Origin: a virus
Length of the DNA stretch: 64,000 nt
Reading direction: 5' to 3' (one strand)
UHGV virus genome: UHGV-2031204
A program made the translations under genes and the position numbers. Below the pieces are notes generated by a model that was not told the DNA's origin, made no database searches, and worked only from the letters and a program-made list of their open reading frames with translations. How positions within the stretch are numbered: position 1 is the stretch's first letter; every line of letters starts with the position of its first letter. Below, one piece after another: positions 3,178 to 64,000 of this stretch.

Positions 3178-3839
3178 TCGTTTATAGTGAGGTCTTGTCA
3201 AAAGCCCCTCGGTTTTTACAAACTCACTTTATGTATAACGCACGACACTATTGGGGCTTTAAAGCCCCTTACTCCGAAGATTGGGAAGTTGTGGAAAAGT
3301 TAGCATTTGTGTTTTCTCTTTCGTTGTTGTGGGAGATCATTGCACTATACAACGCAGGTTGTGATATCCCGGAGAACGGCTTTTTCCAACAACACCTATT
3401 CCAAAAATTCACAGCATCGGTAGAAAATCATGAAGTACGCAAGGAGTGTCTCGGCTACGCAGAGCATTCTGAAGAGTTGAAAAAGATTTCCAAATTAGTT
3501 ATCACGCGGGCATGGGCTGAATTCGAAACTTACCCCGAAAAAATAATTTGGTTTAATCGTGAACAGTTTATTAAAGAGGCAGCCAGTCAACATCCCGTTC
3601 GATTAATCGTGTTAAAGCCATCCGATCTTGCCTTACGCCACATCTATTCCTCTCCAGAGGAAATCGTTTTTTCCTCTGGAACAACAGATTACGGTATTTT
3701 TAAACAAGGCGATTCTTGGATTCTTCCACACGATTTAGACGGGTATTTGCTCAGCAGCGATCAAATACATTCGGGTTATGACTCACAGGTGAAGGAGTTT
3801 ACACTCGATCCTTTTTTCGCTAAAAATATTCTTAGATAG
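3171..3839 (+). CDS. hypothetical protein (start may be ATG 3231)
   Basis: Long ORF in the co-directional block. Confidence 0.45.
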   Translation: MLIVYSEVLSKAPRFLQTHFMYNARHYWGFKAPYSEDWEVVEKLAFVFSLSLLWEIIALYNAGCDIPENGFFQQHLFQKFTASVENHEVRKECLGYAEHSEELKKISKLVITRAWAEFETYPEKIIWFNREQFIKEAASQHPVRLIVLKPSDLALRHIYSSPEEIVFSSGTTDYGIFKQGDSWILPHDLDGYLLSSDQIHSGYDSQVKEFTLDPFFAKNILR

Positions 3840-3875
3840 ATATTATCCAGGTGTAACACCATTGGAGTTATTAAA

Positions 3876-12924: not shown

Positions 12925-12995
12925 TCTTACTACCTCAATTTCAAAAAGAAGTCAGACAGATATTATCTACGTGAGACATTCTTTAGGAGTGAATT

Positions 12996-57910: not shown

Positions 57911-57983
57911 TAGTGAACCTCGAAATAATTACGGATAGATATTATCCTAGTGAGAGTCTTATTCTACCTAAAGGAGTTTTAAA

Positions 57984-59108
57984 ATGAGAAATTACTTACG
58001 TAAACCCGTTTGGCACAGAATGCTGCGCGAAGGTACCATCGACCGAAATCAAAACGTCAAAATGTGGGTTCTTCCACACGGCGTAATTTGTGATTTAGTT
58101 CGTGTCGGTGGTATGGACATTTTGCGCAACGGTACCTACGATGCGGTCAACTCGTTTCTTGCACGCGAATTGGCAGAGGCAGGTTTACATGGCGAAATTC
58201 TGTTTTACACCACACGCGTTATTCCACAAACCCTGTCGAAATGGTTAACGTACTGGTTGTCTGGTGATCCTGACGCATCGGACCCAGAACTCAACTCAGT
58301 AACAATTACAACGTTGGGACAATACCCAACGAAACCGCTACCATTTCAGGTAAACGTAGTAGAGCCGTTAATTGTAAAAGCAGGTGACGTCTTCGACACG
58401 ATTAAAGCTAAATCCAGAAACCAAGCGGTTTCACAGTTCCTCGTAGAAACTGAAAATGAGGTGTTTCGCCTGGAACCCGTCCGTAAAACGGATGCCACGT
58501 TACTGGCAGTCACCGACTACGGTGTGGTGTGCCGTTCTACAGAAGGTCACACTTTCCTGTGTACAATTTTGTCTCGTCGTATACAAGCCCAGTTAGCGCA
58601 CTACAAACTGAGTTTGAACGACATCATCGGTACTACGTTACGCATCGAATACACGATGTACACCGATGGCAACAGGTTGTGTAACTACAAGTCACCTATC
58701 GCGTATCGAGCACTGGCGTTAGACAGTCTCGGTGATTGGGTTTCAACGACATACGATGGGCCTTCACCGTTTAAAACAATCCCGACACAACGGCCTGCGT
58801 TGCTGACGGTTACACGCTGCAATCGTGCTGAAATCTACGAGGAAAATGGGGTGATTTATGGCTTAGAACGTGAGACAGGATTAACGCTGTTTCGTTTCCG
58901 CCGAGGCCCAGAATACGGGCGTTACGCTGCCGTTTTCGAACGGGAAGGGGAACAAGAAACCTGGCTATTCGATTCCGATTTCTCGGTTGACGTTATCGAC
59001 CCTGAAGGGTTTATTGCTTCGGTCGGAAATCAGGTGTTCTACGCCACCGGTTACAGTTTGGTCGATGTGAAACTGTACTATCCGTCAAAAGAACTGACGA
59101 CTCTGTAA
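57984..59108 (+). CDS. hypothetical protein
   Basis: AAAGGAG RBS; strong terminator follows. Confidence 0.55.
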   Translation: MRNYLRKPVWHRMLREGTIDRNQNVKMWVLPHGVICDLVRVGGMDILRNGTYDAVNSFLARELAEAGLHGEILFYTTRVIPQTLSKWLTYWLSGDPDASDPELNSVTITTLGQYPTKPLPFQVNVVEPLIVKAGDVFDTIKAKSRNQAVSQFLVETENEVFRLEPVRKTDATLLAVTDYGVVCRSTEGHTFLCTILSRRIQAQLAHYKLSLNDIIGTTLRIEYTMYTDGNRLCNYKSPIAYRALALDSLGDWVSTTYDGPSPFKTIPTQRPALLTVTRCNRAEIYEENGVIYGLERETGLTLFRFRRGPEYGRYAAVFEREGEQETWLFDSDFSVDVIDPEGFIASVGNQVFYATGYSLVDVKLYYPSKELTTL

Positions 59109-59118
59109 AAAATATTCT

Positions 59119-59156
59119 GGGGAGACTTCGGTCTCCCCCGTTTTTATTTTTTTTTG
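59119..59156 (+). terminator. rho-independent terminator
   Basis: GGGGAGAC/GTCTCCCC stem, TTCG loop, long T-run. Confidence 0.8.
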
Positions 59157-59609
59157 CCCAAAATCAAAAAACGCGATGAGAGCGATTCTAACGCATTTTT
59201 CTTCCAGGTGGTACGTTCGTACCCCTTACCCACGTTTATCTCTCCAGAGAGCTTCCTACGAAGAATTTGAGGGTGTTTTGGTTGTGGGTTTTGAATTTAT
59301 TTTCACTCAACGCCATGAAACCGCGATTTTGTCGTTCGTGCTGTCACGCCAACCCCTATCCCTGGGTGGGACGAAAACCCACCCCATCGTAAAACGCTCT
59401 AAAACGCTTTTTGACGCAAAAATCTTCTCAAGGGGTACACTTGGGTACCCGAACCCCGTTTAATTCGTTACAGCTCGATTGAGAGCGTCTGAGGGGCATT
59501 CCCCTCGACCAGTTCCACCCCACCCTCGGGTCGGCGAACCGGCCGCCGCGACGATCAAAAAAACATTCACGCTTCGCGTACTAGCGGATCAGCTGGATTG
59601 ATCAACTTA

Positions 59610-59940
59610 CTGAATCTTCACACACTGAAGATTCAGGTTGAGTAGTTCTCTAGCTTTGGTTTTTTGATCTTTTAAAATTTTTAATACTCTTCGAGAGACT
59701 TAGTGTCTCTCGAATCGATCTTAAATTTTTAACTCTTTCAAAAATCTGATCTCAAGATCTCTTCCTTATACGCGTGTGCGCACGCACACGTATAGTATAA
59801 TATATTTATTTATAAATATATTATTCCTTTAGGATCAAAATAATAATACCTTTAGGTATTATTTAATTATATATTTTAATATATATTATATATAAATATA
59901 TATAAAACGCGCGCGATCCTTATTATGAGATCTGATCTCG
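59610..59940. repeat. repeat-rich AT-rich intergenic core (candidate origin/regulatory hub)
   Basis: IR 59610-59636 (11-bp arms); direct repeats GATCTTTTAAAATTTTTAATACTCTT 59666-59691 and GATCTTAAATTTTTAACTCTTT 59717-59737 flanking IR 59690-59714; quasi-palindrome 59767-59794; ~90% AT 59795-59907 with IR 59842-59863; CGCGCGCG 59908-59915. Confidence 0.5.
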
Positions 59941-60120
59941 CTATGACCCCCCTGAGGGGGTAGGGATCGGTGAGCGGTATTTTCCAGAAAAAACCGAAAA
60001 TCGTACCCGGGGTAATTCGCCAGGGTAAAATCCCCACCTGGGGGATCGGGTAGGGGTCTACCCCGAACACCTGACCGAGGGGTGTAAAACCCATTCCCCT
60101 TTTTCGAACGTTAAAACCCT

Positions 60121-60760
60121 ATGGTATGTTCGGAGGATTTGCGTGGGATGATTTACAAATCCAACCACGAAGATTTTTCGGAGTTCAGGAGTTTACTGCT
60201 CACAGCTCAAACACGATTTCTGTCTGCGAAGATTCAGCAGAGCTCGAAGCCCCCTGACCGGATGTTGGTTTGGGGGTTGTTTTTTCGAGTGCATGGAATT
60301 TATTTCGCCGTGTACTGGGAAAAACAAAACGTTCAGCCTAACACTGGAGTTTGTTTTACTATGGGGTTTGAAAATCGATTTGCCAATCGAACTTACCCCG
60401 AGGGATTTTTGGAATCCCCAGAGTTCAGGTGCTCGGTACCGTTTCCCCGACTTACGAGTGTTGGGGAGCCCGCGCTATCAGTGACGCGTGGACCACATGA
60501 GAAAATCCGAGGGAACCGTGGCAGCCTCTGGGAGCGACGTTGGCGAAAGGTCCGTAGAACTTACCTGCGGGCAGCCGACGGTGGGATACGCTCCCAGAGG
60601 TGCGGCCAGAATGCGAATTACGACGTTGCGTCGAATGACCCTGCTCCAGGTAGCGCTGGCAGTGTGATGTCCTCTAGCTTGACGGCTCGCAAAGACGAGA
60701 GGGGTGCGTACTCCCGTTGAGAAACGCCGGTACGCAGCTGAATTATTTTTTTTTACAGCG
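60121..60760 (+). ncRNA. candidate structured noncoding RNA (unclassified)
   Basis: GC-rich, no RBS; perfect 12-bp long-range helix 60525-60536/60589-60600; several local hairpins; terminator-like hairpin 60705-60736 plus T-run 60745-60754; the overlapping 199-codon ORF uses CGA/AGG/GGG codons, whereas sampled neighbouring genes read mostly CGT/CGC for Arg. Confidence 0.3.
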
Positions 60761-60802
60761 TTTCCTGTTGGTGTGACACAAACCACGGCAGGAGATTTTA
60801 AT

Positions 60803-61165
60803 ATGGATTCCAAAAACACCACTAACGTGGAATTGGATGTTCAGTACAGGCTCGATGAGTTGGCAGCTCTGTTAAAAGCCCCGGAGGACTGGGGATGCAC
60901 GGAGCCAGCGTTACTTGATTTGATCAAGAGCGTGCGGATTTACCAACCCGTCGAGATTTACATCACGGTAGTTGTGGAAGTTCACGATGGTTATTGCGTG
61001 GAACACATCCCTAGCCCTATTGCGCATTATCCGAGCTATCGAGAGTGTCTCCTGGTAGCCGTTCGTGAAGGCTTGGCTCGTGCGATTCGTGAACATGTTA
61101 CGCGATGCACGAACCCGATGGCAGCTGTTGATCAGGTGGACAGCAATGAGTTAGGAATTCTGTGA
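60803..61165 (+). CDS. hypothetical protein, coupled to HslV-like gene
   Basis: GGCAGGAG RBS before ATG 60803; stop overlaps downstream start. Confidence 0.5.
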   Translation: MDSKNTTNVELDVQYRLDELAALLKAPEDWGCTEPALLDLIKSVRIYQPVEIYITVVVEVHDGYCVEHIPSPIAHYPSYRECLLVAVREGLARAIREHVTRCTNPMAAVDQVDSNELGIL

Positions 61166-61665
61166 TGACCACGATTGTTTTTGACGGAAAGACGTTAGCT
61201 TGCGACGGTCAAGTCACCGTGGAAGAGCGTAGTGCTGCCACGCAATACCGTAAGATCCACACGCCGCCCGAGGGTACGACGTGGAATCTTTTGGGTGAAG
61301 ACGTAAAAGCGTTTGGTTTGGCAGGCGATGTCGCCGCATTGCAATCTGTGCGTCAAGAACTCACGCTTGAACGTTTCGGTGGTATCGAACGGGGTGGGGT
61401 TCGTTTTGAAACGACGTATCCCGAACAGATTGATTTTATCGTACTTGCTGTTTTGACAGACGGGCGCGTTATCGACGCCTCGAAATGCAAAGACAACAAA
61501 TACGCCAGTTACGTGTTTGTAGAGCCACCGTATGCGATAGGCTCAGGTGCACACTATGCCCTGGGTGCGTTAGGCGCAGGCGTTGACGCCCCCACTGCGG
61601 TGGAAGTGGCGAAACGTTACGACCTGTACAGCGGTGGACAAACGCAATCACTTAAGCTGTTTTGA
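61165..61665 (+). CDS. HslV/proteasome-beta-like N-terminal-nucleophile peptidase
   Basis: [16 protein letters not shown] parallels HslV [30 protein letters not shown] parallels [23 protein letters not shown] parallels IAIGSGGPYAQAA. Confidence 0.6.
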   Translation: [166 protein letters not shown]

Positions 61666-61672
61666 TGTATTA

Positions 61673-61748
61673 GGGGGTGTAGCACAATTGGTAGTGCAGC
61701 GGTCTCCAAAACCGAAGGTTGGGAGTTCGAAACTTCCCGCCCCCGCCA
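61673..61748 (+). tRNA. tRNA-Trp (anticodon CCA)
   Basis: Manual cloverleaf: D-stem GCAC/GTGC with G18 G19, anticodon loop CTCCAAA (U33, CCA, A37), T-arm GGGAG-TTCGAAA-CTTCC, acceptor GGGGTG with 1:72 mismatch; 3' end uncertain by a few nt. Confidence 0.75.
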
Positions 61749-61812
61749 GATTTTAGCCACTAAGTTCATTCTCAACACAGAAAACGATATGTGTTATCTG
61801 TGGGAGAAAATT

Positions 61813-62049
61813 ATGAACTTGTATCTAGTAGAAAGAACCGACAGCGTTGGTTGGGATGAATGTTCCGCAATGATTGTTGCAGCCCCTACGGAAGAAGCTG
61901 CATGTGCAATTCTTCCTTGCGAGTCTGGCTGGACTGGTGAGTTGTTATTGGATGGAGATGTGGAAGAGGTTACCCTCAAAGCCACACTCCTCGGTACGAC
62001 ACACTACCCAGAGGGGGAGGTTCTTTACACTGATTACCTATACGGCTAA
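61813..62049 (+). CDS. hypothetical small protein
   Basis: 78-codon ORF starting at ATG 61813 (track ORF begins upstream at 61789). Confidence 0.35.
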   Translation: MNLYLVERTDSVGWDECSAMIVAAPTEEAACAILPCESGWTGELLLDGDVEEVTLKATLLGTTHYPEGEVLYTDYLYG

Positions 62050-62724
62050 AACAGTGGGCTTCGGCCCACTAACCTAATTAGAACAATCGAACAAGAGTCA
62101 CAAACTCGTCAGCCTTCAACTGAGGGTCGGTTGTTCTGATAACTTCTGCTCTTGCTCACGGGTAGAAAGCTCCTTAAAAACGTGTAAACACCTACCGATT
62201 AAGTTCGGACTTACGTTAGGGTCGTGAGACCCTGGTGGTTAGACCACCTAAACGGTTGTACGGTGGGAGGATAAAACCTCCCACCTGCACCCACCAAGAA
62301 TTTAATTATTGGGTATTTCCCCTAAGTGTAACGTGAATACCCTGTAATGTGAATTGAGAGTTACGTGTTAACTCGACGGTACTGGTCGATGATCACCTGT
62401 AAACCTTCATCGTCCCATGTCATGCTGTGTTTGACCAGTACCGAACTTTGTCGCTATGCCTGGTGACGTGGCTACACACCGAGGCTGGGGCTCGACACCC
62501 GTTAGCGACACCCTTTTTGCGTTATTGTCAGTATTCTGAAGCTGTGTTCAGTGACAGTAGCGTTTTTTATTCGCGTTGGCGTTTGTACCATTGCTGCCCT
62601 TGCTGTCATTGCTGCCACTGCCTGCTGCGCCTCAACAGACGTTCAACGCGTCCCATTAACCCACACGTCGGGGTATAGCGACGTACAACAGAACGAGTAG
62701 TAGTAACAGAACGAGGTAACAGAA
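62050..62724 (+). other. structured noncoding leader / intergenic region
   Basis: Hairpins 62053-62070, 62219-62232, 62234-62248, 62262-62285; 11-bp long-range IR 62377-62387/62433-62443; CATTGCTGCC direct repeats near 62589-62620. Confidence 0.4.
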
Positions 62725-63372
62725 ATGCTTACAGTAAAACGCATTATTAACGGTGACCGTGTCATCACTGTGCACGAACGTGTACGTTTAGGTGACAAAA
62801 TGTCCCGTGTTTACAAAGAAGCACTTAAAGTCGCCAATGGCGAAGATAATGAATTGTGTTTTGATAACGCGATTGATTTGCCGAGAAAACCGAAATCGGT
62901 GGGTTATACAGCTTTAACTGATATGTCCGTAGAGGAACAGAAAAGCACCTTAGCCAACCTGCATCCGTTTTTGCACAATGTGTCAGATTGGACCGTTGTC
63001 ATTGGTGGTCGACCTATTCCAGAGGATGTACCACGTGTGGTGATCGTTAACCCGCGTATGCCGTCCTTCGAAGAAAAGAATTCGCCAGTCGACGAAATTT
63101 ATATCCCTGGCAATAATTTCTATTGCCGGTTTTGTGGCTTTACACAGCGTGAAATGACGTATGTGATGCCACCTCAAGAAATCCAATTAGTCCGCGAGTT
63201 GATTAACGAAGATGGTGATACCTTCTATCAGAATCAGCTCCGTAGCGGTAAGCACTCAGTTGACGAGGCTATCGGCGTTTTACTCGTCGATGATGCTTAC
63301 GAATTTTTCTATCCAGGGGATGTGGTTTACATCATGAACAATGAAGGTAAAACCATTGATACCCTGCGATAA
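62725..63372 (+). CDS. hypothetical protein
   Basis: 215-aa ORF; terminator downstream. Confidence 0.5.
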   Translation: MLTVKRIINGDRVITVHERVRLGDKMSRVYKEALKVANGEDNELCFDNAIDLPRKPKSVGYTALTDMSVEEQKSTLANLHPFLHNVSDWTVVIGGRPIPEDVPRVVIVNPRMPSFEEKNSPVDEIYIPGNNFYCRFCGFTQREMTYVMPPQEIQLVRELINEDGDTFYQNQLRSGKHSVDEAIGVLLVDDAYEFFYPGDVVYIMNNEGKTIDTLR

Positions 63373-63477
63373 CCAGTTTAGCTCCGCCGAAAGCTAAAAG
63401 CCCACCCTTCGAGAACGCCCATTCTCATGCCCTGAAGGGTTTTAATCCTGTAGTTTCATTGCCGATGACAGGGAACG

Positions 63478-63515
63478 TACCTACCTCCGAAAGGGGGTAG
63501 GTATATTCTTTTTTA
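63478..63515 (+). terminator. rho-independent terminator
   Basis: TACCTACCTCC/GGGGGTAGGTA stem (one G-U), GAAA loop, T-run. Confidence 0.7.
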
Positions 63516-63597
63516 TCGCAAATTTTTAGAGATAGATGTTACCTGTATGAACGTTGGTACTAAGCGTTTTAATTCGACTTTTTAGGAGCAGGTAAAA

Positions 63598-64000
63598 TGA
63601 AAATAGATGCCATTGAAGGTTTGATGTGTTTGGGGTATACGTTTGATGAAGCGGCTGTTATTCGACCGTTTTTGTCACGCCGTTTCTCAGTGTGGCAAGC
63701 ACTACCCAAAGATGGACCGACTGGTAAGTTAGTAGAACGATTTGTTGAGCGGGTGCTGAATCGTAATCGGAATGAATTTAGTTTACGGTGGGCGGATGGG
63801 AAAGAACGCAAACACTTAAACCCAAGCCCGTGGTGTATGTTGGTGTTTCGTTGTGATGGCGAAGAATTTACGTTCCCAGCTATTGAATTTGTAAGGCGGT
63901 ACGGGTTAGCAATTTACACAGAGTTAGGAACAAACGGCGCAGGTCGAGTATTAGTTTACGACCGGGGCGAGTTACGGATTAAAACGAAACAGTTGGCGGA
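63598..64000 (+). CDS. hypothetical protein, 3' end outside window
   Basis: TTAGGAG RBS before ATG 63598; frame open to the window edge (manual translation MKIDAIEGLMCLGYTFDE...). Confidence 0.45.

Follow-up and report, generated by a model that had tools for sequence, protein, structure and literature searches.

The 64,000-nt window of virus genome UHGV-2031204 analysed here comes from a Salmonella jumbo phage distantly related to SPN3US, and between positions 62050 and 62724 its plus strand carries what is, by sequence comparison, a structured RNA region that is new and limited to a single lineage, together with a leader element that is conserved between genera. This 675-nt gap is a genuine non-coding stretch, the RNA of which is modelled to form about 14 independently folding stem-loops; the base-pairing is kept by selection, and it is as plus-strand RNA that the structure acts. 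The region comprises a chain of hairpins (unit 1, 62077-62568) and a structured leader (unit 2, 62573-62724), which alignment across genera shows to be that of the downstream gene, a homologue of SPN3US gp4. Our preferred explanation, to which we would give about an even chance, is that unit 1 is a transcribed structured spacer or stable RNA and unit 2 a conserved gene leader. The gap is the second longest between long open reading frames (ORFs) in the window, where most others are shorter than 500 nt.

Folding, covariation and coding potential

The plus-strand RNA of the 675 nt has a predicted minimum free energy (MFE) of -236.6 kcal/mol, against -194.1 +/- 6.9 for shuffled sequences (z -6.15; none of 20 shuffles folded as well), and the minus-strand fold reaches z -2.3. 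RNAalifold was run on three alignments (A2, A3 and A5), and the stems that it returned coincide with the hairpins listed for this interval in an initial annotation made from the letters alone, with several more besides; every feature on that list is in the sequence where the annotation had placed it. The curated model of 20 local helices and 146 pairs was scored on the 16-sequence alignment A5. Covariance across related phages, which the annotation had put forward as a check, spoke in its favour: the hairpins are maintained, with 99.1% of cells forming standard pairs and with compensatory, both-sided changes at 17 pairs (57 cells), as against 1-5 pairs in six register-shifted controls; none of 500 column shuffles reached the observed value. 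G·U occurs at 32 pairs (228 cells), and A·C, which an RNA of the minus strand would need, at only 3 (7 cells), an excess from which it follows that the structure is RNA, read from the plus strand. The cluster of protein-binding sites that the annotation had also considered is disfavoured as an element of double-stranded DNA, because the 32 G·U pairs would be A·C mismatches on the opposite strand.

Two small ORFs within the interval, 62427-62678 (83 aa) and 62551-62700 (49 aa), were rejected as protein-coding genes, as the reading frame is not kept: indels of 1, 7, 17 and 19 nt interrupt both of them in relatives, as does a T-run that differs in length. This makes the interval non-coding, and gene callers call nothing in it in those relatives that lack a 105-aa insertion described below.

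The closer relatives (numbered with an L) are contigs of about 220-228 kb in IMG/VR, metagenomes and Salmonella enterica assemblies, and about 20 of them have 62077-62724 at 77-99% nucleotide identity. One, L033 (JAEWFE010000254.1), is labelled a Bacillota metagenome-assembled genome and has the Salmonella-phage-type region at 98.8% identity; the label is probably a binning artefact. Among catalogued phages megablast found no homologue of the interval, and sensitive blastn matched only the tRNA and small ORF upstream of it. The Rfam scan that had been suggested matched no catalogued family in the interval at E <= 10; tRNAs were all that turned up, whether in 58500-64000 (E <= 10) or in nine loci searched at E <= 1. 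Covariance models of 62076-62182 (R1) and 62190-62296 (R2) had no match in SPN3US-like or Erwinia loci or in the rest of the window, nhmmer profiles of the whole interval detected no counterpart of unit 1 in those loci or elsewhere in the window, and a scan of IMG/VR placed the invariant 18-mer CGTCAGCCTTCAACTGAG in three contigs only, all known relatives. By these searches 62077-62568 is without detectable counterpart outside the lineage. In L004, L010 and L028 the interval differs by 1-2% from that of the window, as against 14-25% at the four-fold sites of the flanking genes.

The hairpin chain and the gene leader

The elements of the region, all on the plus strand, are given below with the free energy of folding (dG) where it was calculated.

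62053-62070, plus strand: UUCG-tetraloop hairpin directly 3' of the stop codon of an 86-aa ORF (ORF86), part of the tRNA-Trp/ORF86 cassette and lying before unit 1
62077-62140, plus strand: Y-shaped three-way junction (dG -24.3, z -5.3)
62144-62167, plus strand: stem-loop B, UUCUGCU / GGUAGAA (dG -8.9, z -2.6)
62195-62208, plus strand: stem-loop C, CCGA-UUAAGU-UCGG, with an invariant stem and one variable loop base, uninformative for covariation
62218-62233, 62234-62248 and 62254-62292, plus strand: GC hairpins D, E and F (joint dG -43.9, z -5.8)
62305-62348, plus strand: hairpin I3, an inverted repeat (AUUAUUGGGUAUU / AAUACCCUGUAAU), with U·G to C-G and U·U to A-U changes in L025 and L027
62358-62374, plus strand: stem-loop G, GAGUUA-CGUGU-UAACUC, stem invariant and loop variable
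62377-62443, plus strand: long-range inverted-repeat hairpin, 11-12 bp stem and variable loop of about 45 nt
62449-62518, plus strand: multi-branch element with closing helix 62449-56 / 62503-10, two inner hairpins, then ACCC and U5 (62514-18)
62519-62568, plus strand: terminator-like element, a 17-bp interrupted hairpin (62519-62563) running into U6 (62563-68; U6-A-UU) (dG -18.8, z -4.1)
62573-62649, plus strand: long hairpin with a 14-15 bp stem and apical CTG-rich, 9-nt-phased direct repeats (62589-62621)
62665-62684, plus strand: leader hairpin ACGUCG-GGGUAUAG-CGACGU, 6-bp stem, 40 nt before the start codon
62685-62727, plus strand: purine-rich unstructured tract with two AACAGAACGAG repeats, the Shine-Dalgarno sequence GAGG (62713-16) and the ATG (62725)

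The first of these, AGTGGGC-UUCG-GCCCACT, had been reported as a hairpin without a U-tract, and so it is (dG -13 kcal/mol, z -4.5). The stretch 62044-62082 is found at 90% identity in the SPN3US-like contig L029, and the hairpin is missing where relatives have a tRNA-Ile instead. Unit 1 opens with the Y element, the 14-bp stem of which (62077-90 / 62127-40) encloses a variable hairpin (62096-62106) and an invariant one, TCAG-CCUUCAA-CUGA (62109-62123). Compensatory changes affect 4 of the 14 stem pairs and 2 of the 3 pairs of the small hairpin in the 16-sequence alignment, the stem exchanging A-U for G-C, U·G for A-U and A-U for U-A around the invariant inner hairpin; the 18-nt core, the 18-mer named above, does not vary. 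Stem-loop B is paired in all sequences, with G·U to G-C changes, and is followed by a conserved single-stranded tract (62168-62194); alternative foldings, in a competing small hairpin or with a long-range partner, are possible in the model. The three adjacent GC hairpins of the initial annotation are those listed as D, E and F, and each shows compensatory change (U-A to C-G in D, G-C to A-U in E, U-A to C-G and A-U to G-C in F) under loops that vary in both sequence and length.

The 11-nt inverted repeat reported at 62377-62387 and 62433-62443 is perfect, and the hairpin that it forms has two compensatory pairs and five wobble-compatible one-sided changes. In the multi-branch element one pair is compensatory and the others are nearly invariant; taken alone it has a z of only -1.2. 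The hairpin with a T-run noted near the end of the unit corresponds to the terminator-like element, in which a stable hairpin stands directly before the U-run, as in intrinsic terminators; a simple terminator scanner missed it because of its internal loop. It is found in all relatives, with wobble to Watson-Crick changes in L023-L025 and with its apical part swapped for other pairing sequence, and in L025 the U-run reads UUUUCU. GC hairpins with U-runs likewise follow genes elsewhere in the window, for example at 59119-59138 and 63477-63504. From the structured intercistronic spacers of polycistronic phage transcripts the region differs in that a U-tract follows only one or two of its approximately 14 hairpins; the other gaps between long ORFs in the window are mostly below 500 nt, several of them with short ORFs.

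Unit 2 begins with the long hairpin at 62573-62649, which shows compensatory C-G to U-A as well as wobble changes. Its CATTGCTGCC-type direct repeats, also noticed initially, are lineage-specific and are lost by slippage, a repeat-unit indel of 17-19 nt being seen in 7 relatives; in SPN3US and SPAsTU the corresponding position is taken by a hairpin whose arms differ. Over roughly the final 110 nt upstream of the ATG the sequence can be aligned to the leaders of SPN3US gp4 and of its SPAsTU homologue. Those leaders, though unannotated, share with the one described here the purine-rich tract, the motifs GCCUGSUGCG and ACAGA, and a 6-bp hairpin whose loop reads GGGWWWWR; SPN3US differs in having two weak tRNAs and a 385-nt leader, against 650 nt in this phage. 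Within the lineage one pair of the leader hairpin passes from A-U (the window) through G·U (L024) to G-C (L023, L025). The hairpin at the same place is CCACGA-GGGAUAUG-UCGUGG in SPN3US and CCGCGA-GGGAAAAG-UCGCGG in SPAsTU, so that across the three phages covariation extends to every one of the six stem positions, under a loop that stays GGGWWWWR. This conserved loop is likely to be a protein-binding or 5'-end-stabilising element. Of the regulatory 5' untranslated region (UTR) proposed initially, a conserved leader is supported for the 3' 150 nt, homologous to the SPN3US and SPAsTU leaders, and not for the 675 nt as one leader, which the hairpin and U6 at 62519-62568 divide; an sRNA, which the annotation also named, would be a candidate beside a UTR.

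The tRNA slot and natural variants

The gene order in the window is identical to that at the start of the SPN3US record, with flanking genes homologous to gp1 (HslV-like), gp2 and gp4, and all genes from 57984 onward are on the plus strand. The match of the flanks to the SPN3US type (Seoulvirus) is weak, 71% nucleotide identity by sensitive blastn over tRNA-Trp and the next small ORF. Among the neighbouring proteins Pfam matched none, and PHROGs gave only the HslV-like peptidase and families without known function. The immediate neighbours are as follows.

61162-61665, plus strand: HslV-like peptidase (SPN3US gp1; phrog_1040)
61673-61748, plus strand: tRNA-Trp (ARAGORN; Rfam match at 61673-61745)
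61789-62049, plus strand: ORF86, 86 aa, corresponding to gp2
62725-63372, plus strand: 215-aa ORF, 31% amino-acid identity to SPN3US gp4

The initial annotation was right about the gap and needs correction at its start: the interval begins after ORF86, and tRNA-Trp (61673-61748), from which it had been reckoned, is upstream of that ORF. Within the 215-aa gene, 62891-63088 is a divergent mosaic patch in the central part, the proteins being 66-75% identical and L005 having no nucleotide match; the leader upstream is 98-99% identical in several of the same genomes (e.g. L005, L010, L013, L014 and L018).

The same interval holds seven tRNA matches in SPAsTU, six of them annotated (Tyr, Glu, Asp, Ile, Gln, Asn), two weak-scoring tRNAs in SPN3US and larger tRNA arrays in an Erwinia relative. 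It is, on this comparison, the tRNA locus of the phage family, in which the lineage of the window has a structured non-tRNA RNA. What lies 5' of position 62077 is of three types, a cassette swap at one site that comparison with L003-L005 and L025 brings out: tRNA-Trp, ORF86 and the UUCG hairpin, together about 410 nt (61666-62076; the window and five relatives); a tRNA-Ile with the unusual anticodon AAT, its end 3-4 nt short of the start of homology (most relatives; 40 bits in Rfam); or a small 7-bp hairpin only (L025). SPN3US has an orthologue of this tRNA-Ile(AAT) in the second of its weak tRNAs, there with the anticodon CAT.

A tRNA origin of the Y element itself was considered and rejected, for only relaxed ARAGORN calls point to it and sequence similarity to phage tRNAs is lacking. 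The Rfam tRNA model RF00005 (E <= 10) and ARAGORN at its default settings find tRNA-Trp and nothing within the interval. A tRNA-Glu(ttc)-like call at 62080-62153, in which the core of the Y element is read as the anticodon arm of tRNA-Glu(UUC), appears only with ARAGORN -ps60 or in mitochondrial mode, in company with six other spurious calls in about 760 nt, and local alignment of 62077-62175 with 11 phage tRNAs scores inside the shuffle range.

Insertions and deletions within the region have left the rest of it intact. In three relatives an ORF of 105 aa with its own ribosome-binding site is inserted between 62294 and 62315, just before I3.

L009, 4301-4618; L012, 4289-4606; L016, 2366-2683: inserted 105-aa ORF within the structured region

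The C-terminal motif of this ORF (YYVCTRDHAFIMNGDFKTVE) resembles the C-terminus of the 215-aa protein (FFYPGDVVYIMNNEGKTIDTLR). L027, for its part, is without 62388-62554 (167 nt), and there the terminator-like element keeps its 3' arm and U6, this arm now being paired with the 5' arm left over from the 62377 hairpin (L027:3285-3345); a hairpin with a U-run is thus retained despite the deletion, which apparently arose by recombination between the similar hairpin arms GACCAGTACCG and GACAGTAGCG to give the hybrid hairpin. As neither the 105-aa insertion nor the 167-nt deletion affects the remaining hairpins, the region is modular.

A first and larger non-coding stretch of about 1.7 kb lies upstream at 59109-60802. 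It has an MFE z of -2.8 on the plus and -1.5 on the minus strand and no Rfam match; a GC-rich block within it, some 330 nt long (~60420-60745) and nearly invariant, ends in U9; the portion 60675-60741 is 87% identical even in SPN3US, though the ORF after the block diverges fast. This stretch may be a second structured RNA or leader. It also includes, at 59790-59900, an A/T-only block (about 26% GC over 300 nt) with alternating CG/CA runs on either side, which varies in length by about 70 nt among relatives and coincides with a local, origin-like minimum of the cumulative GC skew.

Transcription and rival explanations

A scan of 61665-62512 for terminators found no convincing hairpin with a U-run, the one weak match lying inside the Y element; since no terminator follows the HslV-like gene, the tRNA or the small ORF, unit 1 is probably co-transcribed with them. 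A sigma-70 promoter scan stayed at chance level. The AT-rich motif AGATATTATCYNNGTGAG lies 38-47 nt before three start codons (3838-3855, 12958-12975 and 57937-57954; 3 matches against 0.38 expected) and resembles the extended AT-rich promoters of the virion RNA polymerase reported in phiKZ-like phages (PMC5312081); it probably serves this phage as its early (virion RNA polymerase) promoter. In the literature on SPN3US-type phages we found neither a transcriptome nor an account of this region. That the region is transcribed, and together with the tRNA, that transcripts end at 62568, and what the RNA might do are all inferred, along the following lines. Unit 1, some 490 nt transcribed rightward in the slot of the SPN3US-type tRNA genes, would be reached by read-through from upstream and would fold into its chain of hairpins, with transcription stopping or being attenuated at 62568. 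It would then accumulate as a structured trailer or stable RNA, its hairpins defining and protecting RNA ends in a tRNA-mRNA precursor and stopping or attenuating read-through. The mRNA of the gp4-like gene would come from such read-through or from an unrecognised promoter in 62570-62660.

Several observations weigh against this reading. In L023-L025 the interval differs by 15-23%, against 6-20% at the flanking four-fold sites, and so is not below neutral. Differences between relatives are clustered in patches resembling exchanged alleles of single hairpins, and from this non-uniform divergence it follows that part of the apparent conservation reflects recombination mosaics. The terminator-like stem is AU/GU-rich, and L025, without an upstream tRNA, means that linkage to a tRNA is not obligatory. 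The promoter-like motif found before three genes (AGATATTATC) does not occur in 59109-62724. Lastly, RNAalifold proposes two long-range helices, 62149-59 / 62695-708 and 62333-52 / 62664-84, which would form one large domain. These were set aside for clashing with local hairpins that bear compensatory changes (I3 and 62665-84); all seven substitutions in 62333-52 / 62664-84 are one-sided and wobble-compatible. A further 11-nt inverted repeat (I5, 62450-60 / 62672-82) was rejected, T to A and G to A variants breaking the pairing. Because the long-range helices compete with covarying hairpins and I5 is broken, the region is described here as a chain of local stem-loops; global closure of the whole is, on these models, possible but unproven.

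Those same helices bear on an explanation that we think rather unlikely, namely that all 650 nt are one long cis-regulatory 5' UTR leading the gp4-like gene, with the hairpin and U6 as a regulated attenuator and the other hairpins sensing a signal or binding a regulator that decides on read-through or translation. The stretch is contiguous with the gene on the same strand, with no recognisable promoter between the terminator-like element and the ATG, SPN3US and SPAsTU have a hairpin-rich interval of 370-385 nt between the last tRNA and gp4, and the long-range helices with their seven wobble-compatible changes could close such a UTR, though they conflict with hairpins that truly covary. No alternative antiterminator pairing survives the variation, the candidate 62450-60 / 62672-82 being the one broken by substitutions; Rfam offers no riboswitch, T-box or other catalogued leader, the 105-aa ORF lies inside the region in three relatives, and 5' UTRs in phiKZ are mostly 31-40 nt long (PMC8244752). 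A decaying remnant of an ancestral tRNA array, in which the hairpins would be leftover tRNA arms and spacers and the terminator alone functional, is very improbable. It would account for the tRNA arrays of SPAsTU and the Erwinia phage and the weak tRNAs of SPN3US in the same slot, and for the weak call at 62080-62153; it is largely refuted by the covariation, 17 compensatory pairs and 99% pairing not being expected of pseudogenes, and also has against it the silence of the Rfam tRNA model, the lack of similarity to the tRNAs of relatives, and an interval 98-99% identical where flanking four-fold sites differ by 14-25%. Inverted and 9-nt-phased direct repeats in a recombination hotspot might further suggest an element acting in DNA, such as a replication origin, a packaging site or a protein-binding array. 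Such an element is hardly to be expected here, for the asymmetry of G·U over A·C fits RNA of one strand only, slippage removes the direct repeats in relatives and nothing compensates for the loss, and the GC-skew minimum and the AT-only block are at about 59750-59900, with no skew inflection in the interval.

Large structured non-coding RNAs of more than 0.5 kb, GOLLD (RF01998-type) and ROOL, are often found in phages or prophages, often beside tRNA genes and possibly co-transcribed with them (PMC5737381), and the context here is similar: a jumbo phage, about 0.5 kb of covarying structure, and tRNA-Trp or tRNA-Ile immediately upstream in most genomes, L025 excepted. That unit 1 might be a trans-acting ornate RNA of this kind, folded into a defined tertiary structure and serving a biochemical or anti-defence purpose, the CCUUCAA hairpin for instance mimicking an anticodon arm, could also draw on the invariant 18-nt core within a covarying stem and on its relaxed ARAGORN reading as tRNA-Glu(UUC). 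We consider it improbable. In GOLLD and ROOL multistem junctions and pseudoknots are numerous and the distribution spans phyla, whereas the supported helices here are almost all local, in modules that can be inserted into or lost, and are seen in one narrow lineage. Covariation in the present alignments supports two multistem junctions, the Y element and the multi-branch element at 62449-62510, and neither pseudoknots nor long-range helices, the latter having only wobble-compatible one-sided changes and conflicting with supported local hairpins. The GOLLD and ROOL models have no match at E <= 10 in the interval or at E <= 1 in L004, L009, L012, L025 and L027, and the tRNA-like call needs a threshold that yields seven calls in about 760 nt, with no significant similarity to phage tRNAs.

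The tRNA gene cluster of phage T4 also encodes two stable RNAs, species 1 and 2 (rnaC and rnaD), each a single species of about 120-140 nt and of unknown function. These would be the closest functional analogy to the transcribed spacer or stable RNA that we prefer for unit 1: structured RNA other than tRNA, in a phage tRNA locus, on the same strand, and presumably co-transcribed and processed with tRNAs. The T4 RNAs are far shorter than the hairpin chain of about 490 nt seen here, with its internal site of gene insertion, and processing in the present case would be by inference.

A bolder form of the stable-RNA proposal, which we regard as unlikely, is that unit 1 represents a new class of stable trans-acting structured RNA that took over the slot of a tRNA array in one lineage of nucleus-forming Salmonella jumbo phages, with the CCUUCAA hairpin as its functional site. 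If so, that hairpin could be, for example, an anticodon-arm decoy for a host tRNA-targeting nuclease, or the binding site of a phage or host protein. Hardly anything has been explored of the non-coding RNAs that nucleus-forming jumbo phages make; a review of 2026 notes only that some are expressed by phiKZ (PMC13282480). To these is added about 0.5 kb of well-supported structured RNA without an Rfam family, in which insertion, deletion and cassette-swap variants already delimit the modules. Its position in the tRNA locus would tie this RNA to the roles of phage tRNA regions beyond decoding and to the processing and stabilisation of tRNA-mRNA precursors, and the hairpin in the leader of the gp4-like gene, with its loop conserved across genera, offers a testable regulatory site.

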